Below, one piece after another: positions 1 to 64,000 of a stretch of 64,000 bases of DNA. Where the stretch lies: the IMG/VR virus record IMGVR_UViG_3300021295_000003, positions 40,718-104,717 of that record; one strand, 5' to 3'. A program made the translations under genes and the position numbers. Below the pieces are notes generated by a model. The model had not been told where the DNA came from. It ran no database searches and was given only the letters and a program-made list of their open reading frames with translations. The DNA comes from a virus. Lineage: Duplodnaviria; Caudoviricetes. Each line of letters begins with the position of its first letter. The stretch's first letter is position 1.

Positions 1-3000
1 TGTTTGATTAACACGTAAGGGTGTCCTCTATACATTGTATAAACAGTTGTATCTGCTACAATCTCTATTTTATCATCAGAAAATGCTCCAATACTGAAAT
101 CAGTATGAATACCTTGTAATTCTGCAACATTAATATAACTGTTAGATTGCACATCATATTTAGACAAGTACAATTCACCATTTAAACGATTAAAACCAAG
201 TCTAACCAATCCATTATCTAAATAGAAAGTAGAATAACTATTATCAAGACTAAATAATGAACTTCCAACTTGATTTTCAATATCTACGCCACAGAAATAC
301 ATATAGAACGGTTCTTGTATATATGTGAAGTTATTACTGCCATCATCTTTGAAATAATAGATAGTTCCTTCATTACATTGACGTGTAAATAAAACCTTTT
401 TATCAGGAATAGGGAATGATGAGATGTACATTCCTGCATAATCGTTCGCATAATCACTTGTAATCATTGACTCTGCCACTTCAAAGTTAAAGAAGTGTAA
501 AACGTCAGCAGTATCTCCATCGGTGTTTAAGTTTTGGAATTGTAAGTCATAATAATAGTTTTTAGGAAGTAATTCTGTACTGAAAGTTATGGATTTACCG
601 TTATAACCCTCATCAGTAACTGTTAAGTTGTTTTTGTTGATATAGAAACGTACTGATGACCCATACACGTAATCGTTGAATGCGAAGATTTCCCCATCAT
701 CAGTATCATCGTCATCATCAACATATAAATCTTCTTCGTCTTCTTGTACAACCTCATATTTACCAGTTTCTTCATTAAAGACTGTTTTTAACTGTAAACT
801 TTCAACATCAACAGATAATAACAGTTCTTTATCAATAACTTCTTCCCAAGACCCATCTTCCAACAAGCGACTTGCTTTAACCATACAAGTGAAATACTCT
901 GTATCAGTATCAAACTCATAATTGTAATATTGATATTTAAATAATGGAGTTCCCTTATCATCGGTGATGTAGATTATTCTTTCGATATTATTTTCTTTAT
1001 TTTCTTCAATCTTTGAACTGTTCCAAGTTAAATGAATATCTGCTTGTTCAGGTAAAGTTTCATTAGATTTAATACGGATATGTTGCTTATTATCCATTGT
1101 GATAATTGTACGAAGGTTCTCATCGATTTCTTCCGGTTCTTCGTCCTCTTCAACATCAGCGTATTTGTCATAAATGTAAACTCCATCGGTATCTACATCA
1201 AAATAACCGCTACTGGTGACTGGTTCTCCGTCTTCGTCAAGATAAGTGTATGTGGCAAATTCTTCTCCACTTTCAAGAACGTTAATAGTCATTTGAGGCA
1301 TTTCCGCAGGAGTAGAGTCTTTTGATTTCTCAATACTAAATCTTGTATTGATATTATGAGTCAAGTAACTGACCTCTAATTCCCCATCATAGTATAAAGG
1401 ATTAGTTTTACTTACTCCTTTAACTCCATAAAGTTCAACCCAACCCCTATGGTTCAATACGTCCCCTTCAAACGCTTTCGGAACAAGATTAACAGGCACA
1501 GGCTTATCCACTTTGGTTAAACCTTGCAAAGTAGTCCAATCACGTGGAGGCAGTTTGATTTGAAGACTAATGTCCTCATCAATTTCACCTTTTTTACCCA
1601 TATAGGTTTTGTTTTTATAACTTTCACGTAATAAATCGTTACTGTAATCAGATTTAGGTTCATAATGACTTGTATGTACTGGAACACACCCAATATAAGC
1701 AACTTCGTCCCATTTATGAGCTTTAAGAGTACAATCCCCTTCAATCATCACACTATCATACGGATTAACCGCAATAGGCAAAATATGCCCCAAAGCGTCC
1801 ACTTCAACCAATACACGATGGTCGAACCAAATAATAGGGTCAATCTGAAAAGCAATCTCGGTATTTTCACTATCCAAAGCAGTATAAGGGTCAGTATACC
1901 TATGTGTAACACTTCCATCTTGCCTTGTAACAATCAAAGTGTTATCACCATCAATTAAAGGAATAAAACAACCTCTCCATTTGATAACTGCATTATCAAT
2001 ATGCTCACCGCCATCATTAATTAAATCAAAAGTAACACTATTATTAGTATAATCCACAATACTAATACCTTCGGCAGCACTTGAAGGGTCAAGCTCCCAA
2101 TTAACTAACACATTAGTATTATCAGTTGATAAATCCAAACCATACTGCTCAATAACCGCAGAAGACACTTTTGAGTAATCTACACGGTCTTGACCGTCCA
2201 CATCAACATAATAAGTAACAGTATTTGCAGAAGTTGAAGTACGTATACTGAAATACCAACAAGACTCCTTATTCGCTTGTATTGTACCGTGTTGAATAGT
2301 AATGTCCTCTGATGGACGAGGGTCAATATAATAAGGATAATCCGCATTACCAAGCTTTGAATGTAACGTTTTCAAACCAAACGCAGACAAACGCAAACAC
2401 AAACGATTAGTTGTAGACGCTAAACCTGCACCACTACAAACCCAAGAATACTCACCATTACCAAGATTAGTCATTGGTTTAGTATTCGATACCAACGTAG
2501 TATCAGGAGGCAAACTAATCTTAACAGTCTGATTACCCCCATTCGCTTTCGTAGTATTCCTTAAAGTAACATCAACACAAACAGTATCATTAACACTACA
2601 AGAATGAGGATTATCCTTACTTGTAGCCCTACCATAAGTTAAAACATAATTAGGAATTTCATAATCAACAATAACATAAGCGTGTTTCAAATAAACATTC
2701 GCAGAGTTATCAGTCATAGAGTCAATGTCTTGAAACTTCAAATCAATACCAAACGCAGGTTTATGTAACTGCCCTGTTGGATACGCCATTTTATTCCATT
2801 CTTCTCCACTAATGGTATAAGCAATATCCTGATTTGAAGTTGTTAATTTTGTTGATGGATATACACGGTAAGTATTATTATACCAACCGGTTTTACCATC
2901 TTTGGAATGTTGAGTAACCTTACCTTTACCATTATAAATCATAAAAGAACCGACAGGAGCTTTCACCTTCAATCCTTTCTCACAAGACAAACCTACGTAA

Positions 3001-3299
3001 ATTGTAACTTTATTAATATACGCATTTTTGGGAATGTCTTCTGTGCTGATCCGAAAATCTGCTATTGCAATAGTTTGAGGATTTACCATATAGGAAGTTC
3101 CTGCTTTTGCATTTTTAAAAGCCGAAGAGTCGCTTCCTTTTGAGGTGTATTTTATTTTCCGTGTATATTTTCCAGTTGCAACAGTTTCTGTATTCCCATT
3201 TGCGTTTTGGATATTAATCCATTTGTTGTAGGGGGTTGTTACGTTTGGGTTCGGTTGTTCGTTTGTGGTTTTAGAGTATATTTTTTTAGTTTTAGTCAT
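1..3299 (-). CDS. Large tail/tail-tip or receptor-binding protein (3' end runs off the window)
   Basis: ATG at 3299 (MTKTKKIYSKTTNEQPNP...) after a GGAGG RBS; frame appears open to the window edge (not in the ORF track because there is no stop); downstream of the tape measure; beta-rich. Confidence 0.6.
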   Translation of the reverse strand, partial: MTKTKKIYSKTTNEQPNPNVTTPYNKWINIQNANGNTETVATGKYTRKIKYTSKGSDSSAFKNAKAGTSYMVNPQTIAIADFRISTEDIPKNAYINKVTIYVGLSCEKGLKVKAPVGSFMIYNGKGKVTQHSKDGKTGWYNNTYRVYPSTKLTTSNQDIAYTISGEEWNKMAYPTGQLHKPAFGIDLKFQDIDSMTDNSANVYLKHAYVIVDYEIPNYVLTYGRATSKDNPHSCSVNDTVCVDVTLRNTTKANGGNQTVKISLPPDTTLVSNTKPMTNLGNGEYSWVCSGAGLASTTNRLCLRLSAFGLKTLHSKLGNADYPYYIDPRPSEDITIQHGTIQANKESCWYFSIRTSTSANTVTYYVDVDGQDRVDYSKVSSAVIEQYGLDLSTDNTNVLVNWELDPSSAAEGISIVDYTNNSVTFDLINDGGEHIDNAVIKWRGCFIPLIDGDNTLIVTRQDGSVTHRYTDPYTALDSENTEIAFQIDPIIWFDHRVLVEVDALGHILPIAVNPYDSVMIEGDCTLKAHKWDEVAYIGCVPVHTSHYEPKSDYSNDLLRESYKNKTYMGKKGEIDEDISLQIKLPPRDWTTLQGLTKVDKPVPVNLVPKAFEGDVLNHRGWVELYGVKGVSKTNPLYYDGELEVSYLTHNINTRFSIEKSKDSTPAEMPQMTINVLESGEEFATYTYLDEDGEPVTSSGYFDVDTDGVYIYDKYADVEEDEEPEEIDENLRTIITMDNKQHIRIKSNETLPEQADIHLTWNSSKIEENKENNIERIIYITDDKGTPLFKYQYYNYEFDTDTEYFTCMVKASRLLEDGSWEEVIDKELLLSVDVESLQLKTVFNEETGKYEVVQEDEEDLYVDDDDDTDDGEIFAFNDYVYGSSVRFYINKNNLTVTDEGYNGKSITFSTELLPKNYYYDLQFQNLNTDGDTADVLHFFNFEVAESMITSDYANDYAGMYISSFPIPDKKVLFTRQCNEGTIYYFKDDGSNNFTYIQEPFYMYFCGVDIENQVGSSLFSLDNSYSTFYLDNGLVRLGFNRLNGELYLSKYDVQSNSYINVAELQGIHTDFSIGAFSDDKIEIVADTTVYTMYRGHPYVLIK

Positions 3300-3834: not shown

Positions 3835-6800
3835 TTAATTACCAGTAGCTGGATTAATACCCAAAATATCAAGAATTTGTTTTCCACTTCTTTCGTCAAT
3901 CCTTTTATTATTCACTTCAACATCGTTTCCGTGAACATTAATTTCAATATTAGTATTGTAAGTATCTCCACCGTTTGTAGGTACATCGCCTTTTGTTGCG
4001 TATCTACGAGGCATACTACCTGCGTTATAACCTTTAACAGCACTACTTGTGAAACTACCTCTGTTCTGTATAGCAGTAGGGTCAATAATACCAAGACCCG
4101 GAATATTAGCCCATACGTGACCTATACCGTTCCAAGTACCGTGTCCACGTGAACCTTCAAATCCAAATGCTCTTGCAATTGCAAGGACAATATTAGTACC
4201 GTCCCAACAATTAAATGCTCCCGCTCTCAAAGCAGCAACAGGGTCATCACCGAAATTACTATCAAAGTATTTATCATAATCAGTAGCACGAATAACATCG
4301 AAAATATACTGTTTCGCAACATCAGCTCTACCTTTAACAGGGAAATTACTATTTTCAAACTTACCTACATTTAGGAAATCGTCAAGGTGATATGCTCCGA
4401 AATGAGTATTCCAACCTTTAAACTTCTTACTAATCTTATTAGTCCAGTTAAAGTTCCAACCACCTGCATAGCAAGGTTTACCTGTTTCCATCATACATTT
4501 TAAGTATTCTAACATACTATTATCAGAAGGTTGTCCGCTACTACGTCTTCCTTTGAAGAGTGATTGACTTCTACTGATTGTACCTCCTGCGTAATGCCCA
4601 TTCGCACGTCCACCTGTAAACCTGCGTCTAATAGACCCAGTATGCCCTCCTTGACTACCAATCAACTGGTCTGGGTGTTTAATCTTATTCCAAAACTCTC
4701 CAAGATTAGATTTCAATTTATTAATCTTCTGACCTGTTTGAGTCTTGATATGGTCGGCACTTGCAATTAATGCGTCTTGCATTCCTCTCCAAGATGTTTT
4801 AATGTTTCCAATATTACCAATTGTGGCTGCTTTCATATTTGACAAGCTTGAACGTGTTTTCGCTACAATGTTGGTGAAACTTGATTGTATACCTGTCTTC
4901 ATAGCATTAAAGTTTGTAACAACTTGTGATTTCATACCAGTTACAGTAGGTAGAATAGTAGAAATTGACTGTTTGAATTGGTCGAGGTTAGGAAGTTGAA
5001 TATTGCCTAAACCAAATGTAGGGTTGAAGTTAGTAGTTAATGATTGAGCTAACTGTGAAGCCATTTGAGGTAAGTTCAAACCCCCTGTGTTAGTCAAAGC
5101 TTGACCGATGTAACCCATCTCATCAGATACCGCCCTTGCCATTTTACCTGGACTGTGCTGATCCAATCCATTGTTATCTTTGAAACCATTAGACAAGGAA
5201 GTACCCAAAGCAGCCCCTCTGTCATAGAAATCTTGTTTACGCTCATCAAGATATTGTAAAGCATATCCTACTTCGGTTTCAACGGTGCTTTTGATTTTAG
5301 CATTGTCCTTAAAACCATTGGATAATTTTTCTCCGAGTCCTTTTCCTTTACTACTCATTGTGTCAGATAACCCTGTAAGAGCAGAAGAAACGTCGCTATT
5401 TAAGGAGGTTAATCCTTCTTTGACTCCACTTACGATAGCAGTACCCATATTCTTTGCAGTTGCCTTAACAGTAGGGATTGCTCCTGTCAGGGTAGTTTTG
5501 GTATTATTGATTTGGGTTTGCAATGCAGACACAACATTACTTGCATTAGTCACTCCACTTGTATCCCCACTTCCAGTAGCAGTTAAACCATTAATTTTAG
5601 TATTGAAGTTCATTATGTCTTTAACAGACATATATAACTCATCTAATCCGCTTTTAAGACCACTTGCTTGTGGGTTTCCATCTCCAATTAAGTAACCAAC
5701 TGCTGCTCCAAGAATACCCCCACTTGCCATATTTCCTTGCCAAGAAGCGTCCACAGCACTTCCCATAGCATTTTTAACAGCGTCAATAGCGGTTTGAATA
5801 GCACTAATACCATTAGCACTATTTTGAAGGGCAGCGACTTTATCAGGATTAATCGGTTCAACAGTAATGTTTTCATTGAAGTTTTTAACAAACTCGTTTA
5901 ACTGGTCTATTGGTTGTTTTAATTGTTCAAAGTAGTTAGTTACACCATTAGTGTCTGCTGTGGCTGCTCCACTTACTGCGTCTTGGTATTTTTCGTTTGG
6001 TGAACGAGTATCTGTTTCAAAGTTTGGTAAATCTTTTAAGGCTTCTTTTACAGTTACTAATGCAGTTTTAACACTATCTATACCAGTAGCAGACTCTGAC
6101 AAAGTAGTAACTTTCGCAGAGTCAATTTGGGTAATTTCTAATTTATTAAAATCAGTTATGAAAGTTTCTAATTGAGAGAAGAAACCTCCTTCACCAGTTA
6201 ATTGAGTTAAATCCGCACCAATCTTAACTCCAATTAAATTAGCAACAGCAGTAGCAAGACTATCCCAAGCAATCAAAGCAAAAGCACTCATAGCTTGTTC
6301 AACATAACCTAACGCTTCGGCAGTTAATTTAATAGCCTCTGCACCTTGTTGAACATTACTTAAATCAGTAAACTTATCCCCCAATGCTCCTATTTGTTGC
6401 AATGGATATTCAAGACTCCAAATAGTTTCGGCAACCCATAACATACCGATAGGAATGCCTAATGTAATTGCAGTTCCCATAATCGCTCCAAGAATTGGAT
6501 TAGCAAATGCAATCGCAACAGTAGCAATCGCCAAAGCCAAAGCAGGGATAAATGGTGCAAGATACATTAAAGAGTCAGACACAATCTTCATAGCTTGTGT
6601 TCCTTTTTGCACTTGTGCTTGAATACCACTATACTGGTCGCCTAATGCTCCAATCGCCCAAATACTTGGAATAATCATTACAATAGTTTCTGCTACAAGC
6701 AACATACCTGCTACAATACCAATCGCTGCTTTAAGAGTTCCTGTAACAATTTGAGTATAAGATGGAGCATATTTATCCATAATCAAAGATAACCCTACAA

Positions 6801-9800
6801 CAGCAGGGAGTAACACCGCTAAAACAGGGGAAATCATTTTCAAACCTTCAATTCCTGCTTGGATTTCAGGTTCTTGTGCTTTAAATTGTTTACCAACTTC
6901 GGCTAACCCCCACATAGGTGCTTTAAGCAATATAATCGCTTCTGTGATTAAAAGCATACCTGCTACAATACCTATGGCGGCTCTTGCATAATTTTGAGCG
7001 TCAGATTTCAAAGTTTCTTTAAATGGTGTTTTTGCTTTGGTTTTATCCACATCACCATTTATCCCACCAGTAGAAGTTGATGTACTGCCTCCTGTTTTTT
7101 CAATAGCGTCTTCGGCATTGTCTTTAACATCTTTCCAACCTTTTGCAACATCTTTAAGTTTACCACCAACTTTCTTCAAGACCTCAAAGACAGAGTCAGA
7201 ACCTGAAACCCATTTACCAATCTTTAAACCAATAAGTCCCAAACCAGTTCCTAATGCACCAATTGCAAAGACCCATCGACCGCTTTCAGTACCAAAGAAG
7301 TTCAATAACGCTTCTCCAATGCCTACAAGAGCGTCTTTAATTGCATAAGCAGTAGGTTTTAAATCGTCCCAAGTCTTTTGAACAGCTTTCCAAAAGTTAA
7401 GGAATGCGTCATTATTCCAAATGTCAATCCAAAGTAATTTAAGGTTATCAATAGCAAAGTAAGCCCCTGCCATTAAATCTCCTTGATAGAACTGTTTTAA
7501 ATGCTCTCCGGCTTCCTCTGCAACAGTAGAATACTCCATTATGTACTTATCCATATCCTTTTGAGTACGATTAGTTTCATTCATATGCTCCAAGTTTTCG
7601 CTAATATGTTTACTTGAAGCTTCTAACCAATCGTACTGTTTGTTATATGAATTAGTAATCTCATATTGGGCTTGATTGATTTTATCAACCCAAAATGCTT
7701 GTTTTTCAGTCGCTTCGGTTTCAGAGTGTCCTGCTGCCATTAAATTTTGTTTACGGAAACTTGATTGAGCCAACTTAATGGATTTTTCCCTTTCATCATT
7801 TTGGGCTTTATAACTTTTCGCTAACTTATTCGCAGTTTCTAATTCTTTTACATTACCATCTACAATGGCTTTGTTAGCTTTTGCTTGTGCATATTTATTT
7901 TTATCTTCTTTTGAAGTAGCATTAGCATACTTATCCATTATTTTCTGATAACTTGCAGACTCTTCTTTTGCCTCTTTGAGTTTGTCTGATCCGGTTTCAA
8001 CAATTTCGTTGAACGCTTCAACTCGTTTTTTGACAAGGTCTGCTTGAACTGCCATTGAAGATAACCAAGCAACTATACCAATAGCCATTACTCCACGGAT
8101 TGCCAAACCAAGCACTTTCCAAGAAGTAGCAGTTTTAAGAATGGCTTTTCCTCTACTTAATTCAGCAGCTTCACTTAATTTAATATTATTTGTTAGATAT
8201 GCTAATCTTTGAGAGCGAGTTAATTCTAATTTACTTAACTTTCCAGTTAATTTACCATTTTTATCCCGTTCCAAGAAAGATATACGCTCAATATCAATAC
8301 CCTCTTTTAATAAAGCTTTATTATGTAACAATGCTTTTCCATATCCTTTTTCGGCAAGAACTGTTTGATTAACTCCTAATAATCTTCCCATTATGGATTT
8401 AGTCCAACGGGTGTTTGCTACTTCACTTGCTTTTGTTCCGCTGATAACTGCGGCTAATGCTCTACGGAAACCATACTGTGCTACTTCGGCTTTATTCAAG
8501 TTCAAAGCAGCAGTAGCAATTGATTTGCTCCAACCGATAGTTGCAATATCTGCAAGACCCATTCCTTTGGTTACCATTGGTAAAGCGGTGAGTATTCCTC
8601 CGAATAATGCTCCTCCTCCACCAATCCAAAGGAAACTTCTCCAAAATGAATTTAAACTATTAAATGAAGTAGAAACACTATCAATTGCTCCAATAATCAT
8701 ATTAAATGCTTCTACAATCATTGGAGAGGCAGAGTCAAGTAAATCAGCACCAGTTTCCTCAAACCTTGATTGAGTAATAGTCAATACATCATTTAAGGAA
8801 GTTGCTTTTTTAGCAAAAACGTCCCAATGCCTATCAAGGGCTGCTTTTTTCAATGCTTTGAGTAAACCATCGATGTTGGTTTTATCTTCGTCCCAACCAT
8901 ATGCGACTAATTCTTCTTTACCTACACCAGTTTCTCTGGATAATCTTTGGAACTCTCCTTGAAGAATATCTTTAACTGCAAGTGCTGCTTCTTCTGATTT
9001 ACGCCCTGCACGGACATATTCAGATTGTATCATAGTAACAATCGGTAGAGCATCTTTCATCTGTTTAGCAGTTAAATCAAATTCCAAACCAATGCTTGAT
9101 ACAGTTTCTCCTATACTGTACTTATTAACTTTTTTATAGGTTTTTGTGAGTTTATCAAGTTCCTTACGGAAATACTTTATTCCCCCTTCTCCAACCTTAT
9201 CATTTTGTTTTAGTTGAGCTTCCATTTCGTTTTTAGCAGTTACGGTGGTTTTTATGCCTTCTGCAATTTGAGAAGCGAACCCCCAAAGAGCCATACCCCC
9301 CATTGCTGTGAAAATCATTTTAAGAGATAATAATGCCCCCCTAATTTGATAAAGAGTATTGGAAAGTATTCTACCACTATGGGCAGTTTGAGTCACGCCA
9401 TTGTTGAAAGAAGTTAAACCTCTTCCAGTATTACGTGCATTAACTCCTGTTTTAGTTAATTCACTATTTCCAAGAGATAATTCTCTAATTGCTTGTTGAG
9501 AAGAACTTCCAAGTAATTTTAACTTATTTGCTAATTTAGTAAGTTCACTTTCATAAGTTTGAGCTGTGATTTCGCCTTTTTTAAATGCAGTTTCCAATAC
9601 ATTTAATTTATCACGGTAAATTGTTGTTTGTTGGCTTAATTTAGCAAGAGCAGATTTATTCTTACTACTTATACTTGAAAAATGACTCAACTCCCTACTA
9701 ATACGGGATAATTTACCTGCAAGTTCATTAGACATACCCATAGAGTCCATAGAAGACATTACCATATGTGCTTTATTAGAAAAAGCATTCATCTCCGCCC

Positions 9801-14229: not shown

Positions 14230-14254
14230 AATTAACTTCCTCCTATGTGTTATG

Positions 14255-15836: not shown

Positions 15837-15837
15837 T

Positions 15838-46665: not shown

Positions 46666-46679
46666 AATGGTGATGTGGA

Positions 46680-50241: not shown

Positions 50242-50278
50242 ATTCTTTTATAAAACTAATTTTACGAGTTGATCAACA

Positions 50279-50879: not shown

Positions 50880-50905
50880 AAACAAAAAAACTAGAACTGG
50901 GAAGG

Positions 50906-51490: not shown

Positions 51491-51506
51491 AATTTAATGA
51501 AAAAAT

Positions 51507-53493: not shown

Positions 53494-53503
53494 AAAGATA
53501 TTT

Positions 53504-54916: not shown

Positions 54917-55805
54917 CAAGCATGACATTAAAAACTATCTCGGTAACCGTAGAATAGCTGTAATTCAAAAAGCACACTACACTACACATACATTAATCCA
55001 ATTCGTAAACAACCGTTTAATAGATAAAAAGATAATGGAATGGAATAATGAATACACTACTGACATAAGAGACCCTTTTAAACAAGAGAATATTGAATCA
55101 CAACTCTCAGGTTACAATGTCATGGCAACCAGCAAAGACTTACAAAGAATACTAAAACACAGTGCAATTCAACGTAATAGTTTCACTGAAAACGAAGCCA
55201 GGAAAGTAATACAATCAACTGCTGGAGACCTAACCCAAATAGAAGCCCAAAGAATAGTGAAAAACTTAGACTATGTTGGAAATGTCCTGACTAATGCAGA
55301 TGTGAATATTAAGAAATATGAAGCATTAATAGAGAAGCTGCCAAACAGGACCAGCCGTAGTGAAATATTGAATCGTTGTACTAATGCTGCTGAACATGAG
55401 CTTGTACCAACACAAAGGCAAAGATGGTTAGAACGAAACTTAGCACGTGGCGAATCATACAATAAGAAATACAGTTACAAAGAACTAAACCAATTGTCAC
55501 GTGACCTGGAGCGTTATAAGACACATCGTTTAGATTATGAAAAAAGCATTATTGAAAATAAACAAGCATTCCGTGAAGGATACGAAGCAGTGAATCAAAC
55601 CAAATCCTGGATATGGTCCACATTGGAAAAAACCAGGCATCAAGAAATGGATGGAGAAACAGTACCATTAACCAGTAAATTCGAAGTCACCAACGAACAA
55701 ACTGGAGACACTGATTACTTACTATTTCCTGGAGATGTCAGTAATGATCATAACAACTGCAGCAACATTTGTAACTGTGGTTGCACTTATGAAATCAATA
55801 ACTAA
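54903..55805 (+). CDS. Minor head protein (MuF-like)
   Basis: K.W......TRH..MDG...FPGD...NCGC. Confidence 0.75.
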   Translation: MRLTNKHDIKNYLGNRRIAVIQKAHYTTHTLIQFVNNRLIDKKIMEWNNEYTTDIRDPFKQENIESQLSGYNVMATSKDLQRILKHSAIQRNSFTENEARKVIQSTAGDLTQIEAQRIVKNLDYVGNVLTNADVNIKKYEALIEKLPNRTSRSEILNRCTNAAEHELVPTQRQRWLERNLARGESYNKKYSYKELNQLSRDLERYKTHRLDYEKSIIENKQAFREGYEAVNQTKSWIWSTLEKTRHQEMDGETVPLTSKFEVTNEQTGDTDYLLFPGDVSNDHNNCSNICNCGCTYEINN

Positions 55806-55837
55806 TTTTTATGTAAAATCAACCTTAAAAGGAGACA

Positions 55838-56839
55838 ATGGTGAGCGTGTTACTATGTAAACAAAAAGCATTATACGTTAAATGTTGTATTATAGCAAAT
55901 GGTGTAACTGATAGCCAAGGAGACACATTATATGCTGAAGACATTAAAAGAATCTTCACATCATTTAACAATCAAGATAATTTTGAAGTATACCACAATG
56001 AACTACCTATTAGTGAGGTTTCATTGCTTGAAAATTATATATCAAACGCTGATGAAACGATTGGTACAGCTGTAGTGCCTCGTGGAAGTTGGAATGCAGT
56101 AATAAGAGTTGACAATCCTGACATTAAAGAAAGATTGTTAACTGGTGAATTTAAAGGTGTTAGCCTTAACAATAGAATAGCTGAAAAATGCCGTGGAAAC
56201 CTAACAGGAAACGTGCGTTACCAGGATGTCGGTAATGCTGAATGTTTCATACCATTATTCATTAGTTTCGTAGAAGCTGGAGCTAATGGTTATGGATTAC
56301 ATGTTATGGATTATCCAGCATATGTAATGAAAAGCAAATCTATTGAATTAAATAATGGAGCAGATGACATGGATTTAAAAGAATTCTTAGATGGTCTCAA
56401 ATCCTTAATTAAACAAGCAGAAGACACACCTGAAGAAGAAGCTCCTGCTGTTGAAAAAGAGGATGAAGACCCACAACCTGAAGAAGAACCAGTTGTTGAA
56501 AAATCCGAAGAAGAAGAGGAAGCAGCAACTGAAGAAGAAGTAGTTGATGAAACCTCCACCGAAGAAGAACCTGAGGAAGAGGAAGCTACTGTTGAAAAAG
56601 CAGAAGATGATTTCGATGCAAGATTAACACGTATCGAAGAAATGTTAGCAAAAGCATTTGGTGAACAAACTGAAGAGGATGCTGAAACCCCTGACCCTGA
56701 AGTAGAAGAGGAAAATGAGGACACTCCAAAAATCACTAAATCAGAAAAAGTAGTGCTAACTACTCAAACTGCAAGTCAAACTAACTATTACGAAATGACT
56801 GGAAGAGATCCAATTACTGGTTGTAAACTTAGAAAATAA
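55838..56839 (+). CDS. XkdF-like prohead protease plus acidic scaffold
   Basis: DSQGD, H, GSW, GEFKGVS, ISFV..GAN; Glu-rich C-terminus. Confidence 0.8.
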   Translation: MVSVLLCKQKALYVKCCIIANGVTDSQGDTLYAEDIKRIFTSFNNQDNFEVYHNELPISEVSLLENYISNADETIGTAVVPRGSWNAVIRVDNPDIKERLLTGEFKGVSLNNRIAEKCRGNLTGNVRYQDVGNAECFIPLFISFVEAGANGYGLHVMDYPAYVMKSKSIELNNGADDMDLKEFLDGLKSLIKQAEDTPEEEAPAVEKEDEDPQPEEEPVVEKSEEEEEAATEEEVVDETSTEEEPEEEEATVEKAEDDFDARLTRIEEMLAKAFGEQTEEDAETPDPEVEEENEDTPKITKSEKVVLTTQTASQTNYYEMTGRDPITGCKLRK

Positions 56840-56889
56840 AACCTAAAATTTATTATAATTAAAACAAAAAAAGAGGAGAGTACATCTTT

Positions 56890-57927
56890 ATGATAACCCA
56901 AGCAGACATTAAAGCAAACAAACCTGTTATTGTAAAATGGGATAAACCATTAACAAGCAATGGTGTAGTAACTGATGGAGTATTAGCTGGACAAGCTCAA
57001 GAATTCATCACTAGAATCGAAGAAGAATCTGAATTATTAGGACAACTCCGTTACATTGAAATGGAAGGAGAAACCCAAGACATTCAAGCATTAAGAGTAA
57101 GAGCTGAATTACAAAACATGAATAAGATCACTGGAACTGTAGGCGCACAAGTAGCTGACATCACTACTTTAACTGAAACCACTCCAGGAATTCTTAAGAA
57201 TACTTTAGAAGCTCAACCTTTCACAGCTTACTGTAAAATTCCTAAAACTTTCTTAAAAACTAATATTGAAAAAGAAAACTTCATTGCTAAATATGAATCT
57301 TTATTAGTTCCTTCCTGTGCTTTCAGTGCAGAACAAATCGCTATATTTGGTAAGAAAACTTTAGCTGATGCAAAAGGTATTCATGCATTAAAAGGTATTC
57401 TTGCACAATTAGATGATGTTAAAACTGCATGGACTAGTGGTCACAGTACAGATCCTAAAATCCCAATGGGTGAATACACTGCTATTAACGCTGGTGTAGG
57501 TTACGAAATCTTACCACAAATCGATGCAATGTTAACTCAGTTCACTTACCAAAGAGGTAAAAGGAAAAACGCTAATATTTATGTTTCCTCCAAATTAGAA
57601 TCTGCTATGATTGCTGAAGCAAGTAAACGTGAAACCGAAGGTGGTGACAGATTATTCTTCAACGATAACGGTAACATGGTCTTCAGAGGCAGAGAAGTTA
57701 TTCAATTAGATGCATTAGACAACCCAGTAAACAGTTACGCTGATGTTGTAATCATTGCAAACCCTGACAGTATTGGTTACGGTCCAATCATGGAAGCTGA
57801 ATCCGAAGCTGAATACAAAATTGAATTAAAATCTTACTTAACCAGTGTTGATTGGATGTTCGATGTAGCTATCATCTTCCCTGAAGATGTTTTATACGCT
57901 GATGTTGATTATACTGCAAAGGAGTAA
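56890..57927 (+). CDS. Major capsid protein (module B)
   Basis: 345 aa; G.L...QA.EFI, NIE...F motifs; high-expression codon use. Confidence 0.85.
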   Translation: MITQADIKANKPVIVKWDKPLTSNGVVTDGVLAGQAQEFITRIEEESELLGQLRYIEMEGETQDIQALRVRAELQNMNKITGTVGAQVADITTLTETTPGILKNTLEAQPFTAYCKIPKTFLKTNIEKENFIAKYESLLVPSCAFSAEQIAIFGKKTLADAKGIHALKGILAQLDDVKTAWTSGHSTDPKIPMGEYTAINAGVGYEILPQIDAMLTQFTYQRGKRKNANIYVSSKLESAMIAEASKRETEGGDRLFFNDNGNMVFRGREVIQLDALDNPVNSYADVVIIANPDSIGYGPIMEAESEAEYKIELKSYLTSVDWMFDVAIIFPEDVLYADVDYTAKE

Positions 57928-58214
57928 GTTCATCTTCCGATAATGACAGTAACGAAGATGATACAACTGAAACTGTCAATATTTCAGTTACTGTAACTGA
58001 TGGTACTGACCCAGTGAAAGGAGCGATTGTTACTATTGGTGGTCAATCATGTGCTAATGGAACTGGTGATGCAGGAGGTTGTACTGTAAGTGGTGTTGCT
58101 ATTGGTGAAGGTGTTGAAGTCACTGTAACCTGTGAGGGTTATGTTGATTACACTGCTACTGAGGACATTACTGCAGAAACAACTACCATGTCAATTACAT
58201 TAACTGCCTCATGA
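57918..58214 (+). CDS. Ig-like capsid extension in the -1 frame
   Basis: Frame open from 57909; no RBS or ATG; Ser/Asp linker then a domain paralogous to 17123-17584. Confidence 0.65.
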   Translation, partial: KGVSSSSDNDSNEDDTTETVNISVTVTDGTDPVKGAIVTIGGQSCANGTGDAGGCTVSGVAIGEGVEVTVTCEGYVDYTATEDITAETTTMSITLTAS

Positions 58215-58217
58215 TGA

Positions 58218-58254
58218 TGGAGAATAATACTATTCTCCGTTATTTCTTTTTTTA
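58218..58254 (+). terminator. Hairpin plus T-tract
   Basis: GGAGAATA/TATTCTCC then T-run. Confidence 0.55.
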
Positions 58255-58300
58255 AATTAACACAACTTTTAATTATATAAGACTAGTAGGTGATTTATCC

Positions 58301-58789
58301 ATGACTAATGATGTTACATATAGCAGTACAATTGAAAATTGGATAATTTCAAACCTAGATGGATGGCGAATCGAAAACCAAACTGAAGAACCTGAAACTA
58401 CTACTGAAATTAACCCATACATGACAACTGCTGAAGCAAACGAAAAAGCCAATAAAGTAATCACCAGTAATGAATGCCAATTATTCTATGAAGAAACATT
58501 AGATATGGCATACATGCATACTAACAGATTAAACATTGATGACTTAACTGAAGTGGAATCAAGAGTATTCCTAAGAGCCGTGTGTAAATGGACAGCCAGT
58601 AACTTATGGAATAAATATAACATTCGTGTAAATAATGAGGACCTGGAAGACACTTACATACAATCCTACGGTGGATTACTCTATCATTCAGCAATAAAAA
58701 CCTTATCTCAATTCATTAATCAAAGAGTAAAAAGCATGACAAATCTCACTGGAGATACTGAAGACAATAATGATTTATGGATAGTGTAA
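58301..58789 (+). CDS. Putative head-tail adaptor
   Basis: 162 aa after the MCP. Confidence 0.55.
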   Translation: MTNDVTYSSTIENWIISNLDGWRIENQTEEPETTTEINPYMTTAEANEKANKVITSNECQLFYEETLDMAYMHTNRLNIDDLTEVESRVFLRAVCKWTASNLWNKYNIRVNNEDLEDTYIQSYGGLLYHSAIKTLSQFINQRVKSMTNLTGDTEDNNDLWIV

Positions 58790-58793
58790 AGTT

Positions 58794-59312
58794 ATGTCAG
58801 GATTCATACCAGACCTTACTACACGTGTAAGTGTTGAAATAGATACAACTGACATTAATGATGCTATCAGTAGAATCTCAGGTACAATACTTGAAGATGT
58901 ATTTACAGAGGAATTGGAAGATGCTAAGAATACATTGGAAAACTTGAAACAACCATTAACTCAGGCAGTGGCTGAAGGATTGCAATCAAACCAGGAAATG
59001 ATAATCTCATCCAAACATTCCATTAGTAATATGATGGCTAATAGTGTAGACCTCTCCAATGATGGAGATGACATCCTGGTTGGAAATACTGCTATGACTG
59101 TTGATGGATTTCCATATCCATTAGCTATTGAAACTGGAAGTAAGGACCATTGGGTTGCTCCAGTAACATTTGATGTTTTACACTGGACAGATGGTGGTAA
59201 GGATTACTACAGTAAAGGACATATGGTTAGTGGAATCACAGCAGATCCATTCGTAGAACCAAGTATTGAAAACACCATGTGGGATATTGATGAAATTTTT
59301 AGTGATTTATAA
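58794..59312 (+). CDS. HK97 gp10-like neck/tail protein
   Basis: YPLAIETG..H, G....PF motif. Confidence 0.65.
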   Translation: MSGFIPDLTTRVSVEIDTTDINDAISRISGTILEDVFTEELEDAKNTLENLKQPLTQAVAEGLQSNQEMIISSKHSISNMMANSVDLSNDGDDILVGNTAMTVDGFPYPLAIETGSKDHWVAPVTFDVLHWTDGGKDYYSKGHMVSGITADPFVEPSIENTMWDIDEIFSDL

Positions 59313-59330
59313 AATGGAGAGATAATTTTT

Positions 59331-59804
59331 ATGACTGATACTGATATGACTTCAGATATACTAATCTACAATGTATTGCATTCCTGTGAAGATGAATTCA
59401 TACAGAAATGTAACTTGAAATTCATAGACCAATCCGTTCCAGCACAGGAAGATGACACTATCTACATAGCAGTTATCGACTTGGAAACAAAACAGGAATT
59501 ATTCAATGATACAGAATACAGGGCATTAGTTAACATTTATGTGAAAACCAAAGATACTGATTACATTAGTGGTTCAAGGTTTCTTCGTACTGTTATCAAA
59601 CATATTAAAACTGTATTACGTAATGATGAGGAATGTAAAAGTAGAAAAATCGTATTCAGAAACACTACCTATGAATATGGTAGTAAATACACATTAAAAG
59701 GAATGCATTTAATAGTTCAATTACTGGAATACGAAAGCAAATCCTCAGATGTGGAATTTGAATGTGTTAATTTAAATGATGACTTTGATATTGAAATACA
59801 ATAA
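59331..59804 (+). CDS. Putative tail terminator
   Basis: 157 aa before the sheath. Confidence 0.5.
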   Translation: MTDTDMTSDILIYNVLHSCEDEFIQKCNLKFIDQSVPAQEDDTIYIAVIDLETKQELFNDTEYRALVNIYVKTKDTDYISGSRFLRTVIKHIKTVLRNDEECKSRKIVFRNTTYEYGSKYTLKGMHLIVQLLEYESKSSDVEFECVNLNDDFDIEIQ

Positions 59805-59819
59805 AAGGGGCATTAAATA

Positions 59820-60005
59820 ATGGCTAAGAAAAAAGAAAAAGAACCAACTTTCAACTGGAGAGATTCATTACATGAAATGGAAATCCCACAAATGCTAAAA
59901 GCTGGTATCAAATATTACATTGAAATCAATGACTTAACTCCAAAAAACAATAAGGACCTGGAGAAAATCATTGATGATTACAGTAAAATAAAACTAGGAG
60001 AATAA
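59820..60005 (+). CDS. Small hypothetical protein
   Basis: 61 aa. Confidence 0.5.
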   Translation: MAKKKEKEPTFNWRDSLHEMEIPQMLKAGIKYYIEINDLTPKNNKDLEKIIDDYSKIKLGE

Positions 60006-60010
60006 AACTT

Positions 60011-61054
60011 ATGACAGCTAATATTCCTAAAATACAAGTTTATAATAAGAAAAACCCTGTCAATGCTATTCCTGGAATGGCTGGTAAAATTGCAGTAATC
60101 GGTGCATTTGATAGTGAGGAAACCGAACCATTATTCATTAATGATTTGGATGCAGCTTATACTCAACTTGGAACAGATACTACATTCAACGGTGTAAAAG
60201 TATTAGACAAATTATTCTATGGTGCAAGTGGAATTATTGCAGTTAACATTACCACCAAAACTGGTAGTACTGTAGATAAATCCATTATTACTACAAAATT
60301 AACAACTGCATTAGCTAAAATTAAAAAAGAATCATTTGACATGTTATTCATTGCAGATACATTAACAGATGAATTCATGCCAATAATCACAGCATTCACT
60401 GATGACAGATACTTAAACAAACTACCTATCGGTTATGTTGGATGTGTAACAACCACCAGTGAAACATGTGCAGCTACAGCAGCATTACAATCAGATGCAT
60501 GTTACGGAATCATAACCCAGGCAGTAACTGTTAATGGAACTGCATATGATCTACTTGAAACTGCAGCATACTACTGTGGCGTGATTGCAAGTACAAACAT
60601 TGGTTCCAGCATGACTGCTAAACAAGTTCCTGGAGTAACTGCATTAACAACAAGTCACACTTTCGAAGATGGAGACCTTGGAAAAACATTGGTTGGACTT
60701 GGATACACTGTATTAAACTGTTATGACAGAGAAAACAGTATCTACGAAGTAGTTAACAGTGAACAATTCAACGGTTATGATTTATACATTAACCGTGTAC
60801 GTGACTATGTAATTCGTGAGTTAGCATTACACCAATTCCTAGGTGAAAGAAACCGTACTGCAACCTACAGTGAAATTCAACAAGAAGTGGACCGTGTGAA
60901 AGCTAAATGTGTTAAAACATTAGATTTACTCGCTGATATTGAATACAACATTGTTAGGAAAAATAGTAAATGCGTTGATATTAACATTACCAAATTATTG
61001 TTTGATGATATTATCATTGACATTGATGTTTATGTTACAATTGAGGTGCAATAA
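60011..61054 (+). CDS. Tail sheath protein (minimal)
   Basis: 347 aa; IAVIGAF N-terminus, AAY..G..A, L...G...L, RVRDY; followed by a small tube gene. Confidence 0.75.
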   Translation: MTANIPKIQVYNKKNPVNAIPGMAGKIAVIGAFDSEETEPLFINDLDAAYTQLGTDTTFNGVKVLDKLFYGASGIIAVNITTKTGSTVDKSIITTKLTTALAKIKKESFDMLFIADTLTDEFMPIITAFTDDRYLNKLPIGYVGCVTTTSETCAATAALQSDACYGIITQAVTVNGTAYDLLETAAYYCGVIASTNIGSSMTAKQVPGVTALTTSHTFEDGDLGKTLVGLGYTVLNCYDRENSIYEVVNSEQFNGYDLYINRVRDYVIRELALHQFLGERNRTATYSEIQQEVDRVKAKCVKTLDLLADIEYNIVRKNSKCVDINITKLLFDDIIIDIDVYVTIEVQ

Positions 61055-61056
61055 GT

Positions 61057-61461
61057 ATGGCAGATAAAGAAATTATCATTAACGGTAAAACCATGTTGCA
61101 TGGTAACGGTGTTAAAGATGGTGTTGAAACATCCACCAGCACTACTGTTTGTTTCGATGAAGTAGTGCCTCAAGGTTCACCAAACACCAGTTATACCTTG
61201 GAAATCGACAGGTTAGTTTATGAAACTAAAGAGGATTATGACTGGTTACGTGAGGAATTAGAAAAACTCAAATCAGTTCCAGGAATGATTACTACTCGTG
61301 AAATTATCAGATTCAAAGATTCAGAACCATTCGTAATTATTAAAAACTTTACTGACTGCATCCTTGATGGTAAAGATTACGAAATGAAACCTGAAGAACA
61401 ATCAGCACAATCATTGAAATTCATTTGTGGTGGTTGTGATGAAAGAACTGAGTATGTATAA
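61057..61461 (+). CDS. Tail tube protein
   Basis: 134 aa after the sheath. Confidence 0.7.
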   Translation: MADKEIIINGKTMLHGNGVKDGVETSTSTTVCFDEVVPQGSPNTSYTLEIDRLVYETKEDYDWLREELEKLKSVPGMITTREIIRFKDSEPFVIIKNFTDCILDGKDYEMKPEEQSAQSLKFICGGCDERTEYV

Positions 61462-61506
61462 TTTTTAAAAATATTTTTTCCCTCGTTTAATATATGTATT
61501 TTTTTT

Positions 61507-61550
61507 GAAGAAGACTTTAAAACTCAAATAAGGTCTTCTTCTTTTTTTTT
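61507..61550 (+). terminator. Hairpin plus T-tract
   Basis: GAAGAAGAC/GTCTTCTTC then T9. Confidence 0.6.
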
Positions 61551-61575
61551 AAAAAAATTATAAAGAAATAATGGA

Positions 61576-62007
61576 GTGAGATTACCAATGTCAAAAGTGG
61601 ATGATTTAAAAGCTGAAGAGTTAAACAGGCTTAATAATAATGATGATGAGATTTTCGATTTAGAAAGTTTAATTACTGATGGTGCAGATGCAAGATTTCC
61701 AATAATAGTGAAATTTCCGAAAGGTAACGAAACTGTAGAAGCAGCTGCTATGATAAGACCATTAACAAGTATTGAATTAAACAATCTCTCCAGGACATCA
61801 AGAGGTAGTAATGTATCTAATTTCGGTGTTGAATTATTGAAATTAGCATTATATACCAAAGATGGTAAGGAATTTCCAGTAGATCTATTAACTAAAATTC
61901 CAGCTGGAGTGGTTAATGAGTTATGTAATGAAATTTATAGGATAAGTGGAATCACTGTTGATAAAGCTGAAAATATGAAACTCGCAAAGCAAATGTTGGG
62001 GTTTTAG
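61576..62007 (+). CDS. Tail assembly chaperone (XkdN-like)
   Basis: IRPLT..E and G....L...I..ISG motifs. Confidence 0.75.
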   Translation: MRLPMSKVDDLKAEELNRLNNNDDEIFDLESLITDGADARFPIIVKFPKGNETVEAAAMIRPLTSIELNNLSRTSRGSNVSNFGVELLKLALYTKDGKEFPVDLLTKIPAGVVNELCNEIYRISGITVDKAENMKLAKQMLGF

Positions 62008-62177
62008 ATTTAGATGATGGTGATTTATCCTTTTTAACTTATGGTGTAATACATGGTTATCTCATTAACAATGGAGATATAAGTACAATGACACCTTTAC
62101 AACGAATGGCAATGGTTACAATCAATAAGATAATATTCAAATGGAAATCGAAAAACAAACCATTAGTAACAATATAA
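61998..62177 (+). CDS. Chaperone C-terminal extension in the -1 frame
   Basis: Open -1 frame after GGGGTTTTAG; ISTMTPLQR motif. Confidence 0.6.
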   Translation, partial: GVLDLDDGDLSFLTYGVIHGYLINNGDISTMTPLQRMAMVTINKIIFKWKSKNKPLVTI

Positions 62178-62196
62178 TGAGGGGAGGTTTAGAAGG

Positions 62197-64000
62197 TTGG
62201 CAGATAAAGAAATAAACATTAAAATTACAACCGAAACCGACACAGGACCTGTAGATGACTTGGCTAGTAGTGTTGAAGATTTACAATCTAACGCCGATGG
62301 TGCAAGTGAAAGTTTTGATGGTGCTGCTGAAAGTGCTGATGGACTTGGAGCTAGTACTGAAAGTGTTACTGGTGGTGGAATCGGAGATGCTGCTAGTGAA
62401 GCCGATGCCCTTGGTGAAAGTGCAAGTAATGCTGATGCTGAAGTTCAGAACCTGAACGTTGATTTAGGTATGATTGAAGCAGGAGCAATGATGGGAGTAG
62501 CTGACCAATTAGGACAGATTGGAGCAAATGCTGAAGGTATGGCACAGGAAATGAATGGTGCTGCAATCAGTGTAGGTCAATTATCTACTAATGTAGGAAT
62601 GGCAGAGCCTCAAATGGTTAGTTTGATTAACCATATCAGTAATGCTACATTTCCACAAAACGAAGCAATGGCATATGTTGGTGCTTTAAACCAAATGGGA
62701 GTGTCTGCAGATAAACTTGGAGACAGTGCTACCAACATGGACCGTATTAACGATGCTACTGGAATCGGATACACTAATGTAATGCAATTAACTCAAGGAT
62801 TGCAATCAGTAGGGGTATCAGCCGATAACTTACCATCAGCATTCAATGCAATTGCATATGCTCAGGCAAATGTTAATGGTGGAGCTGGAACATTAACTCA
62901 AGTACTGAAAAGACAAGCTTCTACCATTAATGAATATGGATTGAATACTGACCAACTTGTTTTAATCATGCAAAAACTCTCACAACAGGGAGTTCAAGGT
63001 ATGAAAATGGGTAGTGAGTTATCCAAAGTATTAAAAGAAAATAATGGTGACATTAGTGCTGTTGAACAATCACTTGGAATGCAAGCAGGCACATTAAGTA
63101 ATGCATCACAAGCAACAGGAGAATATGAAGGGCAATTGCAACAACTCGCTGATGAGGAAGCTGAACATAAAACTATTACAGACCAGTTAAACGCTGTATG
63201 GGAAGATGTAAGTCTCGCATTATCTCCAATACTCTCACCACTTGGAAGTTTCATGGGATTAATCGGACAAGCTGGAAGTTATGCAGTAGGAATCAATGGT
63301 CTAGTAACATTAGCACAATCCATGAATACCTTAAGAAATGCTGAAATCTTATCAACAATCGCAACAAAGGCAAGTGCTGCAGCTCAATGGTTACTTAACA
63401 TCGCAATGGATGCCAATCCAATCATGTTAGTAGTCCTGGCAATCATAGCATTAGTGGCAATTCTAGCTTACTTGTATTTCAACAATGAACAAGTACGGAA
63501 TGCAATCAATGCCTTAGGACAGACATTCGTATGGATTGGACAAGTCATATACACCAGTATAATGTCAGCAGTGAATACAGCAATAAGTTGGTTTAATACT
63601 CTACGAAATTATGTGGTTGGTTTCGCTAACAATTTCATAAACACTTTACGAAATGCAGCTGCAAATGCAGTTAATGGATTTGTATCTTATATTACACAGT
63701 TGCCTGGAAGACTCAAAGGCGAACTAGACAATATGTTACAAATGGCACAAAGTTTCATGATGGATATTGCTAACATGATGACAGGTGGTGCAGCTGGTAT
63801 GGTTGTCGGTTGGATCACTGGAAGTGGTGAGCATTCACCAGGTTACATGTATGATGCATTCCAAGGTGAATTGAAAGAAATGGAAAATATTGCTGAAGAC
63901 ACTAGTAGTAATTTGCCTAAAACTATTCGTGGAATTGGTAGTAATATTGTTGATGAGTTTGGAGAACCTACATTTAATTTAGGTTATGAGGATACTGCTA
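62197..64000 (+). CDS. Tape measure protein (module B), partial
   Basis: TTG start after GGGGAGG (MADKEINIKI...); AQWLLNIAMDANPI TM motif, EHSPG; runs off the window. Confidence 0.85.
   Translation, partial: MADKEINIKITTETDTGPVDDLASSVEDLQSNADGASESFDGAAESADGLGASTESVTGGGIGDAASEADALGESASNADAEVQNLNVDLGMIEAGAMMGVADQLGQIGANAEGMAQEMNGAAISVGQLSTNVGMAEPQMVSLINHISNATFPQNEAMAYVGALNQMGVSADKLGDSATNMDRINDATGIGYTNVMQLTQGLQSVGVSADNLPSAFNAIAYAQANVNGGAGTLTQVLKRQASTINEYGLNTDQLVLIMQKLSQQGVQGMKMGSELSKVLKENNGDISAVEQSLGMQAGTLSNASQATGEYEGQLQQLADEEAEHKTITDQLNAVWEDVSLALSPILSPLGSFMGLIGQAGSYAVGINGLVTLAQSMNTLRNAEILSTIATKASAAAQWLLNIAMDANPIMLVVLAIIALVAILAYLYFNNEQVRNAINALGQTFVWIGQVIYTSIMSAVNTAISWFNTLRNYVVGFANNFINTLRNAAANAVNGFVSYITQLPGRLKGELDNMLQMAQSFMMDIANMMTGGAAGMVVGWITGSGEHSPGYMYDAFQGELKEMENIAEDTSSNLPKTIRGIGSNIVDEFGEPTFNLGYEDTA

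Follow-up and report, generated by a model that had tools for sequence, protein, structure and literature searches.

The 104,717-nt circular viral record IMGVR_UViG_3300021295_000003 (104.7 kb) is very probably a figure-eight mis-join of two complete and separate Methanobrevibacter viruses, that is, an artefact of assembly rather than a novel type of virus. The window analyzed here is the last 64 kb of that record (contig positions 40718–104717). A direct repeat, R, of 739 nt with abrupt edges (99.3% identity by BLASTN) occurs at contig 25665–26403 (copy 1) and at window 46183–46921 (copy 2, + strand), where it contains three small genes (products of 96, 59 and 72 aa). Its exact core is 678 nt (window 46186–46863 in copy 2), an exact 17-nt direct repeat at window 46190 and 46896 bounds copy 2, and R is flanked by conserved gene-start sequences. 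The two copies split the circle into arc X, a sipho-type genome of 61.2 kb (contig 26404–86899 plus one repeat copy; window 1–46182), and arc Y, a myo-type genome of 43.3 kb (contig 87639–104566 and 1–25664 plus one repeat copy; window 46922–64000, + strand). The contig ends overlap by 151 nt within the tape-measure gene of Y, and no host gene was recognized on the contig. The k-mer switch reported in the original prediction coincides with copy 2, in line with the change of composition that we found in the window at 46–47 kb.

The observations that carry the mis-join are the repeat, the duplicated gene sets, a step in sequencing depth, a split in restriction-site avoidance and the existence of single-module relatives. 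Two temperate viruses would have been present in the same sample, X of ~61.2 kb with a long non-contractile tail and Y of ~43.3 kb with a contractile tail, each containing an identical 678-nt cassette of three small early genes. Being longer than short reads can bridge, the cassette would collapse into one graph node with two entries and two exits; the assembler would then pass first from Y through the repeat into X and a second time from X through the repeat into Y, and these two passes would give one circle containing both genomes. Both joins across the repeat would thus reflect the assembler's choice rather than any molecule in the sample. Metagenome assemblies are known to contain viral contigs that are chimeric or concatenated through repeats, and these are the cases that CheckV-like quality tools flag as over-long. 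The present record is similar to them in its long exact repeat of two co-occurring genomes traversed twice, its length equal to the sum of the genomes, its apparent circularity and its duplicate hallmark genes. In contrast to such chimeras of strains, X and Y differ in morphotype and their structural modules are unrelated, which is why the contig resembled a virus with two virion types.

The structural module of X lies on the − strand. At the left end of the window is the N-terminal part (1099 of 1483 aa; 3–3299) of a distal tail protein, an ORF that leaves the window and is 46% identical to a homologue that is itself downstream of the tape measure in the relative G001 (IMGVR_UViG_3300031993_000076). 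The tape-measure protein of 2911 aa (3835–12570) matched PHROG tape-measure families (2e-13) and is 46% identical to that of G001. A tRNA-Trp (CCA) was detected within the tail module by ARAGORN (14254–14326). The module also encodes the tail tube of the non-contractile tail (14373–15602; Pfam Phage_tube_2 4.6e-8, PHROG minor tail 6e-9). The major capsid protein (17592–18485) is a weak call based on Pfam Phage_capsid_4 (1.6e-5, below the curated cut-off), module position and a G001 homologue. Further along the module are a MuF-like head morphogenesis protein (19971–20744; PHROG head morphogenesis 1.4e-4), a portal (20710–22005), TerL (22007–23326; PHROG terminase large subunit 5e-42) and a candidate TerS (23283–23816; PHROG 1.8e-5). 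The portal gave no family match in PHROG and Pfam profile scans and is assigned by its position between TerL and the MuF-like gene; it is 52% identical to its counterpart in G001. Sheath and baseplate families had no match among the scanned X proteins, a set drawn from genes other than the distal tail genes outside the window. With a tail tube and a long tape measure, and without a sheath or Baseplate_J match, the virion of X is of the non-contractile, siphovirus type.

Beyond the structural genes, X carries on the + strand a tyrosine integrase (36536–37729; PHROG_1 integrase 8e-9), a RecT recombinase (39673–40374; Pfam RecT 2.7e-34) and a candidate primase-helicase of 667 aa (40974–42977). 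The last had no Pfam or PHROG match; its atlas neighbors carry DUF927, NrS1-1-pol-like and DUF5906 domains, which serves as a lead only. An AT-rich non-coding stretch (27000–28400; GC 0.25–0.30) contains tandem 36-nt repeats at 27792–27889 and 27950–27995 and no ORF of ≥60 aa across 27071–28095, and may be an origin or a regulatory region.

The structural module of Y lies on the + strand and is preceded by an ERCC4-HhH nuclease (47953–48630; Pfam ERCC4 4e-15, HHH_5 5e-8). A ParB-like protein (50906–51490; PHROG 1e-43) is followed by a candidate TerS (51507–52145; PHROG 8e-5), TerL (52126–53493; PHROG 1e-38), a portal (53471–54916), a MuF-like protein (54903–55805; PHROG portal/head morphogenesis 5e-6), a head maturation protease (55838–56839; Pfam Peptidase_S78_2 4e-14, PHROG 3e-10) and a candidate major capsid protein (56890–57927; PHROG virion structural protein 2e-18), the last named also by its place after the protease. 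As for X, the portal matched no family in the PHROG and Pfam profile scans and is named by position, with homologues in two relatives (G006 and G010). The contractile tail sheath (60011–61054) gave weak sequence matches (PHROG 8e-6, Pfam 1e-4). Its predicted fold (mean pLDDT 59, core 85–93), when searched with Foldseek against the PDB, retrieved contractile sheaths only (E 2e-10 to 1e-5, TM about 0.45–0.5), with those of phage 812, phiCD508, DSY3957, Lin1278, diffocin and pyocin R2 at the top. The gene immediately 3′ of the sheath (61057–61461), which had no family match in the PHROG and Pfam profile scans, is designated the tail tube by position, and the tape-measure gene (62197–64000; PHROG 3e-20) continues across the contig ends. 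Just beyond the window end is a Baseplate_J protein (1.8e-30), while a gp25-like sheath initiator reached E=0.0056 only. The modeled sheath fold together with Baseplate_J confirms the predicted contractile-tailed, myovirus-type virion of Y.

Two dissimilar virion sets, sipho on the − strand and myo on the + strand, are therefore present as originally predicted, each with its own TerS, TerL and tape measure. No BLASTP similarity at E≤1e-3 was found between X and Y for TerS, TerL, portal, MuF-like protein, protease, capsid, sheath or tube, and the sole matches between the tail modules were short pieces of distal tail/adhesin proteins and the lysins. Both modules had also been said to open with homologous holin-like and coiled-coil membrane proteins. 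The homology held: the pairs located 5′ of each TerS (X, 23864–24518, −, with proteins of 91 and 132 aa; Y, 50279–50879, +) are 45% and 41% identical, and each consists by hydropathy of a two-TM protein and a coiled-coil protein with a C-terminal TM segment. The holin label drew on a sub-threshold Pfam hint only. Similarly, the Ig-like domain noted after both capsid genes is well supported in X (Ig/prealbumin-like protein, 17123–17584, −; Pfam SpaA 1e-6, Big_1 1e-4) and weak in Y (58014–58211, +; PEGA E=0.003).

The impression of a single integrase, recombination and helicase block proved to be an effect of the window edge. A second, homologous integrase/primase-helicase/nuclease block is located at contig 14–25.6 kb, whose products include a 668-aa protein sharing 44% identity with the 667-aa candidate primase-helicase of X and an integrase of 362 aa sharing 39% with its X counterpart; the ERCC4-HhH nuclease paralogue of X (contig 29079–29795) is 39% identical to the Y nuclease. 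Each arc thus carries its own integrase, 667/668-aa replication protein, ERCC4-HhH nuclease, HNH, membrane-protein pair, TerS, TerL, virion genes and C39-like lysin. No replication, integration and lysis set common to both modules was found; there are two homologous sets, one per arc, with early genes 35–50% identical between X and Y.

Depth was assessed in run X1, the probable source run of the record and not an independent sample, as the mean per contig in this one run. The data were Logan contigs assembled at k=31, which are unable to cross 678 nt. Arc X was recovered as a single contig of 60,617 nt (contig 26316–86932) with a depth of 32.4, extending from the X-type repeat end around the arc to include the initial 30 nt of the repeat. 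Arc Y was represented by a 30,697-nt contig with a depth of 22.1, from window 46834 into the myo module, and by a 552-nt piece (depth 18.8) that ends with the opening 30 nt of the repeat core and that we read as the Y-side entry to the repeat. In this independent k=31 assembly, the 678-nt core found at both junctions formed a separate node with a depth of 52.1, about the sum of the arms (32.4 + 22.1 = 54.5), which shows that the identical segment truly exists in both genomes. The coverage step that the original prediction had named as evidence against one genome is located at 46.2–46.9 kb: one molecule is expected to have equal depth on either side of the repeat, yet the values were 32.4 and 22.1. 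At least one third of X copies are therefore not joined to Y, and the ratio of 1.5 allows up to about two thirds to be joined. One other metagenome contig spans just the repeat and the Y side.

The restriction-site signature is likewise not uniform along the record, and its domains of avoidance end at the repeat copies. CATG occurs once against 164 expected in X and 169 times against 219 in Y; CTAG occurs 0 times against 92 in X and 61 times against 95 in Y; and there are 27 CCGG sites in X versus 1 in Y. Before copy 1, the final CATG site is 67 nt away from the repeat; past copy 2, a new run of sites starts after 560 nt. From the sharp CATG/CTAG difference it follows that X and Y have no shared history as one replicon. 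The two arcs differ this sharply in site avoidance despite the genes that they have in common.

The exact segment is truly common to both viruses and X encodes RecT, so real recombination at the repeat is biologically possible. Homologous recombination at the 678-nt cassette, carried out for instance by X-encoded RecT or by the host's own machinery, may have fused the two circles into a real cointegrate of 104.6 kb, a reading that we consider unlikely. A single crossover of two circles yields exactly the arrangement of the contig, the node depth places the segment in both genomes, and the conserved gene-start sequences bounding the repeat could act as crossover points. Set against this are the share of X that is unjoined to Y according to the depths, the CATG/CTAG contrast and the presence of both modules in none of the records of 10 relatives. 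In addition, 104.6 kb would exceed the 52–64-kb genomes of the single-module relatives, an objection based on headful and unit-length packaging. It is equally doubtful that a cointegrate coexists with free X and perhaps free Y, and there is only a small chance that such a portion captures an intermediate of module exchange, caught in the act, between sipho- and myo-type archaeal viruses co-infecting one Methanobrevibacter cell.

The relatives argue for the mis-join and against a single functional replicon, viral or phage-plasmid-like, that would encode two virion types and make use of both. IMG/VR relatives that are complete with terminal repeats (63.7, 57.8 and 52.1 kb) have one module apiece, and the TerL of the other arc was matched in 0 of the 10 relatives' records, including six with ≥90% CheckV completeness. 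G001 (63,736 nt, CheckV 100%, with a terminal repeat) is collinear with arc X over the whole arc, from early genes through packaging, head, tail and tape measure to distal tail proteins, with a TerL identity of 73% and a size of 63.7 versus 61.2 kb; its protein identities are mostly 35–70%, and, unlike X, it avoids neither CATG nor CTAG. No copy of the 739-nt cassette was found in G001 at E≤1e-5. There, homologues of the genes that precede copy 2 directly adjoin those of the genes that follow copy 1, and arc X therefore forms a closed circle by itself. In a second sipho-type relative (G002; 57,783 nt, terminal repeat), the TerL search detected the sipho gene alone, without a match to its myo counterpart. 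G010 (IMGVR_UViG_3300031760_000104; 52,135 nt, terminal repeat, CheckV 100%) has a myo module homologous to that of Y (TerL 41%, sheath 50%, baseplate proteins 37–46% identity), with Y-type early genes, integrase and ERCC4 nuclease and no match to the sipho TerL. It is a more distant relative, 9 kb longer and differently ordered in the early region. Each loop of the figure eight is thus complete and of the expected size (X, 61.2 versus 63.7 and 57.8 kb; Y, 43.3 versus 43.7–52.1 kb), and each type occurs complete on its own, the other finding that had been named as telling against one genome. Both modules of the record look intact, and it is a single, apparently circular sequence without host genes. 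Because the integrase occurs twice, as do the replication, nuclease, lysis and packaging genes, depth steps at the repeat, the site-avoidance domains end there and each complete relative has a single module, it is highly improbable that the record represents a virus with two virion types; the proposal of a single such genome or a recent recombinant gives way to the alternative raised with it, a mis-join of two co-occurring viruses. Two proviruses in tandem in a host chromosome, excised or assembled together, are no less implausible: an integrase is present in both arcs and relatives occur as proviruses in Methanobrevibacter MAGs, but no host gene was recognized, the contig ends overlap inside the Y tape-measure gene, the junctions are an internal gene cassette and not attachment sites, and the integrases are only 39% identical.

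With the mis-join, the proposed virus of two virion types falls away; viral databases should list the record as two separate genomes, which matters for statistics of genome size, completeness and taxonomy. X and Y are apparently two complete, new Methanobrevibacter viruses with different tail types in animal faeces. The archaeal assignment in the original prediction was correct, as the hosts are Methanobrevibacter: copies of the X TerL with 84% and 71% identity are present in Methanobrevibacter MAGs, which carry the relatives as proviruses. In one such MAG, the X-type TerL (71%) is on a 121-kb contig and the sole Y-like TerL (30%) is on a different contig. The homologous early genes, the lysins with 71% identity and the identical 678-nt cassette suggest that the two viruses have a host in common and exchanged genes very recently.

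By TerL matches, MAG copies and nearest named records, X and Y can be placed among the head-tailed Caudoviricetes of Methanobacteriales. The TerL of X is 45% identical to that of Caudoviricetes sp. vir249 (BK063678), and the TerL of Y is 27–34% identical to those of Methanobrevibacter smithii tailed virus 1 (MSTV1) and the Methanobacterium viruses PhiF3, psiM2 and psiM100. Like X and Y, these viruses are head-tailed, infect methanogens with pseudomurein walls and are temperate with an integrase. The tail of MSTV1 is non-contractile (PMC11375127), unlike that of Y with its sheath and Baseplate_J, and no contractile-tailed Methanobrevibacter virus isolate was present among the nearest named records found. 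The lysins of X and Y have C39-like cysteine peptidase domains of the Peptidase_C39-like families (7e-12 and 1.5e-12), and neither matched the Pei-type (C71) Pfam model at E≤0.01 in profile scans. The lysin of one arc has a sub-threshold pseudomurein-binding repeat (E=0.0037), a weak hint that the lysins may be of the pseudomurein type.

The window covers bases 40718–104717 of a 104,717-nt virus record. The first 151 nt of this record recur, with one mismatch, as its last 151 nt, and the break lies within a tape-measure gene, so that the record closes into a circle of ~104,566 nt. The window makes up 61% of this circle, the part to which the original prediction was limited. A direct repeat of 739 nt, 99.3% identical between contig 25665–26403 (copy 1, in coordinates of the whole record) and window 46183–46921 (copy 2) and exact over a 678-nt core, cuts the circle into arc X (61.2 kb), comprising the sipho module and the early block of the window, and arc Y (43.3 kb), comprising the myo module and a second early block. 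X and Y each encode a single, full complement of virus functions. Two packaging, head and tail sets were found as anticipated, on the minus strand at window 1–~24.5 kb and on the plus strand at 50.3–64 kb. The accompanying claim of one replication core does not hold for the contig, because a second early block (contig 14–25.6 kb, outside the window), together with a further ERCC4-HhH nuclease, HNH endonuclease and lysin, is also present. This block encodes a 668-aa protein 44% identical to the product of window 40974–42977, a 362-aa tyrosine integrase (39% identical to that of window 36536–37729; PHROG_1 integrase, 8e-9), an N6/N4 methyltransferase and small genes matched by counterparts in the window; the second ERCC4-HhH nuclease and HNH genes are at contig 28–29.8 kb. 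Searches of Pfam and PHROGs with the 667-aa replication protein returned no match.

The record is very probably a mis-join of the genomes of two viruses. Two temperate Methanobrevibacter viruses in one sample would have had in common an exact 678-nt cassette, too long for short reads to bridge, and an assembler path through both loops would have been reported as a single circle. The stretch, or part of it, is contained in 24 public faecal or gut metagenome runs. Run X1 may be the source of this DNA, and its independent k=31 assembly forms exactly a figure-eight: a 60,617-nt contig at depth 32.4 (contig 26316–86932 of the record), which carries the X-type variants at the right end of the repeat and stops 30 nt into its left end; a 678-nt node at depth 52.1; a 30,697-nt contig at depth 22.1, which exits the repeat into the myo module and by its length would cross the contig ends to reach ~contig 13.7 kb; and a 552-nt piece at depth 18.8, the last 30 nt of which are the start of the repeat core and which was read as the Y-side entry to the repeat. 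The arcs are therefore ~1.5-fold apart in depth, with the repeat at about their sum. A coverage step at 45–48 kb had been named in the original prediction as an observation that would speak against one genome, and such a step is present in X1 between the arcs. A real cointegrate, arising from one crossover at the cassette and constituting part of the DNA in the sample, would have the same sequence as the contig, but it requires equal depth and would leave some common history in the arcs; neither was seen, and we consider this origin unlikely.

Other runs were also inspected at the junction. In run X10, a 922-nt contig containing the end of the X early block and the whole repeat ended at the repeat end, before the exit. 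Runs X13 and X16 gave near-identical long contigs on the myo side (46.4–57 kb), with low and patchy cover of the X side; this hint of Y without X was set aside, as an uncovered part counts as no evidence. Loose-end consensus strings from the runs matched nowhere in the contig and derive from other relatives in those samples. An exact 41-nt probe from the repeat hit no other IMG/VR contig, and a 1105-nt metagenome contig obtained with it contained the repeat and the Y side only, compatible with both a mis-join and a cointegrate. When the repeat DNA was compared with 103 Methanobrevibacter genomes, no spanning provirus was found, only short partial matches (best 82% over 146 nt).

Relatives of each TerL are present in IMG/VR. 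Arc X is collinear over its entire length with the relative G001 (63,736 nt, 127-nt terminal repeat, CheckV 100%), in which homologues of the genes that lie immediately upstream of copy 2 adjoin homologues of those immediately downstream of copy 1; judged by this gene order, arc X closes on itself in G001. G002 (57,783 nt) matched the sipho TerL and not the myo TerL, and G010 (52,135 nt) has the myo module and Y-type early genes. The TerL of the other arc was matched in none of ten relatives' records (0/10), and a functional genome with dual virions is extremely improbable. Arcs X and Y are two new, apparently complete methanogen virus genomes with different tail types, and the database record should be split at the repeat.

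Restriction-site avoidance also changes at the repeat, and that of X and Y is opposite. Arc X, counted over contig 26404–86899 (window 1–46182 and upstream, 60.5 kb), contains one CATG against 164 expected, no CTAG against 92 and 27 CCGG against 54.5; the corresponding values for arc Y are 169 against 219, 61 against 95 and 1 against 19.2. The last CATG lies 67 nt ahead of copy 1, and the next run of CATG sites begins 560 nt past copy 2. GATC, GGCC and GCGC are depleted in both arcs alike, and the GATC sites surviving in X are mostly within CTGATCC/GGATCAG. Use of site avoidance as a lineage marker was ruled out, as G001, G002 and G010 each have a pattern of their own; the split between X and Y thus sets apart two genomes by their history of selection and not by lineage. 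Different restriction systems may have acted on X and Y, or their self-methylation may differ.

Outside the repeat, identity between the two flanks falls immediately to random level. The repeat encodes three small genes, a cassette delimited on both sides by exact copies of the 17-nt direct repeat TGACTGAAAAACGATTT (window 46190–46206 and 46896–46912), with further copies at window 46037 and 46681 bearing 3 mismatches. These 17 nt correspond to the 5′ end (MTEKRF...) conserved throughout a small tandem early gene family, and their copies are possible crossover points for cassette exchange between viruses. A ~30-nt motif where the third cassette gene begins (window 46664–46694) occurs at 90–100% identity in many Methanobrevibacter genomes, in some several times per contig (for example, G011:C103 and G029:C52), and probably represents the conserved beginning of provirus members of this small-gene family.

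The minus-strand set comprises TerS, TerL (PHROG terminase large subunit, 5e-42), a portal candidate assigned by position, a MuF-like protein, a coiled-coil scaffold candidate, a weakly matched capsid, an Ig-like protein, a tail tube (Phage_tube_2, 4.6e-8) and a 2,911-aa tape measure (window 3835–12570). Tail length follows a rule of about 0.15 nm per tape-measure residue, and the predicted tail is therefore ~430 nm, very long among archaeal viruses. A tRNA-Trp (CCA; window 14254–14326, minus strand) is placed between the tube gene and the genes preceding the tape measure. The plus-strand set comprises a ParB-like protein, TerS, TerL (1e-38), a portal candidate, a MuF-like protein, an S78 protease, a capsid candidate, a sheath, a tube candidate and a tape measure, with Baseplate_J (1.8e-30) downstream, just past the window end. 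The arc Y sheath is a weak match at the sequence level; all PDB structures matched by its predicted fold, modelled with three homologues (mean pLDDT 59, core 85–93), are contractile sheath proteins (E 2e-10 to 1e-5). By sequence, neither the sheath nor the capsid candidates matched a PDB entry, and the portal candidates of both sets had no hit in Pfam or PHROGs. By BLASTP, neither packaging and head genes nor sheath and tube genes are similar between the two sets, and the only matches between the tail modules are the lysins and short distal tail or adhesin pieces. The small membrane-protein pairs ahead of each TerS, a two-TM protein and a coiled-coil protein with a C-terminal TM, proved homologous as proposed (45% and 41% identity).

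A C39-like lysin closes each tail module (L001:12211–13002, plus strand, and L002:10606–11280, minus strand, on pieces of the same record outside the window). The two are 71% identical, a sign that X and Y use the same kind of host, and are probably lysins for a pseudomurein wall; one of them has a weak pseudomurein-binding repeat. The identical cassette, these lysins and the homologous early genes suggest that X and Y have a host in common and exchanged genes very recently. The host is Methanobrevibacter. Two MAGs of this genus contain copies of the X TerL (84% and 71% identity); in one of them the copy lies on a 121-kb host contig, and the only Y-like TerL of that MAG is on a different contig. 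Among named viruses, the nearest by TerL are vir249 for X (45%) and, at 27–34%, MSTV1, PhiF3, psiM2 and psiM100 for Y; the tail of MSTV1 is non-contractile (PMC11375127). ERCC4-HhH (XPF/Hef-like) nucleases, a type typical of archaea and eukaryotes, adjoin an HNH endonuclease once per virus (window 47953–48630 and L002:9079–9792, both plus strand).

Within arc X, a C-5 cytosine DNA methyltransferase (window 33323–34782, plus strand) is divided between two ORFs, the first covering Pfam profile positions 2–162 and the second, of 251 aa, positions 252–323 at its C-terminal end. An IrrE/ImmA-like M78 peptidase (window 30328–31263, minus strand) and a VapB/DUF7557-like small protein (window 35888–36295, plus strand) flank the divergent early region of X and are candidate parts of a lysogeny switch. 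Window 27000–28400, AT-rich (GC 0.25–0.30) and nearly ORF-free, with 36-nt repeats at 27792–27889 and a related copy at 27950–27995, is a candidate origin or regulatory region of this arc.
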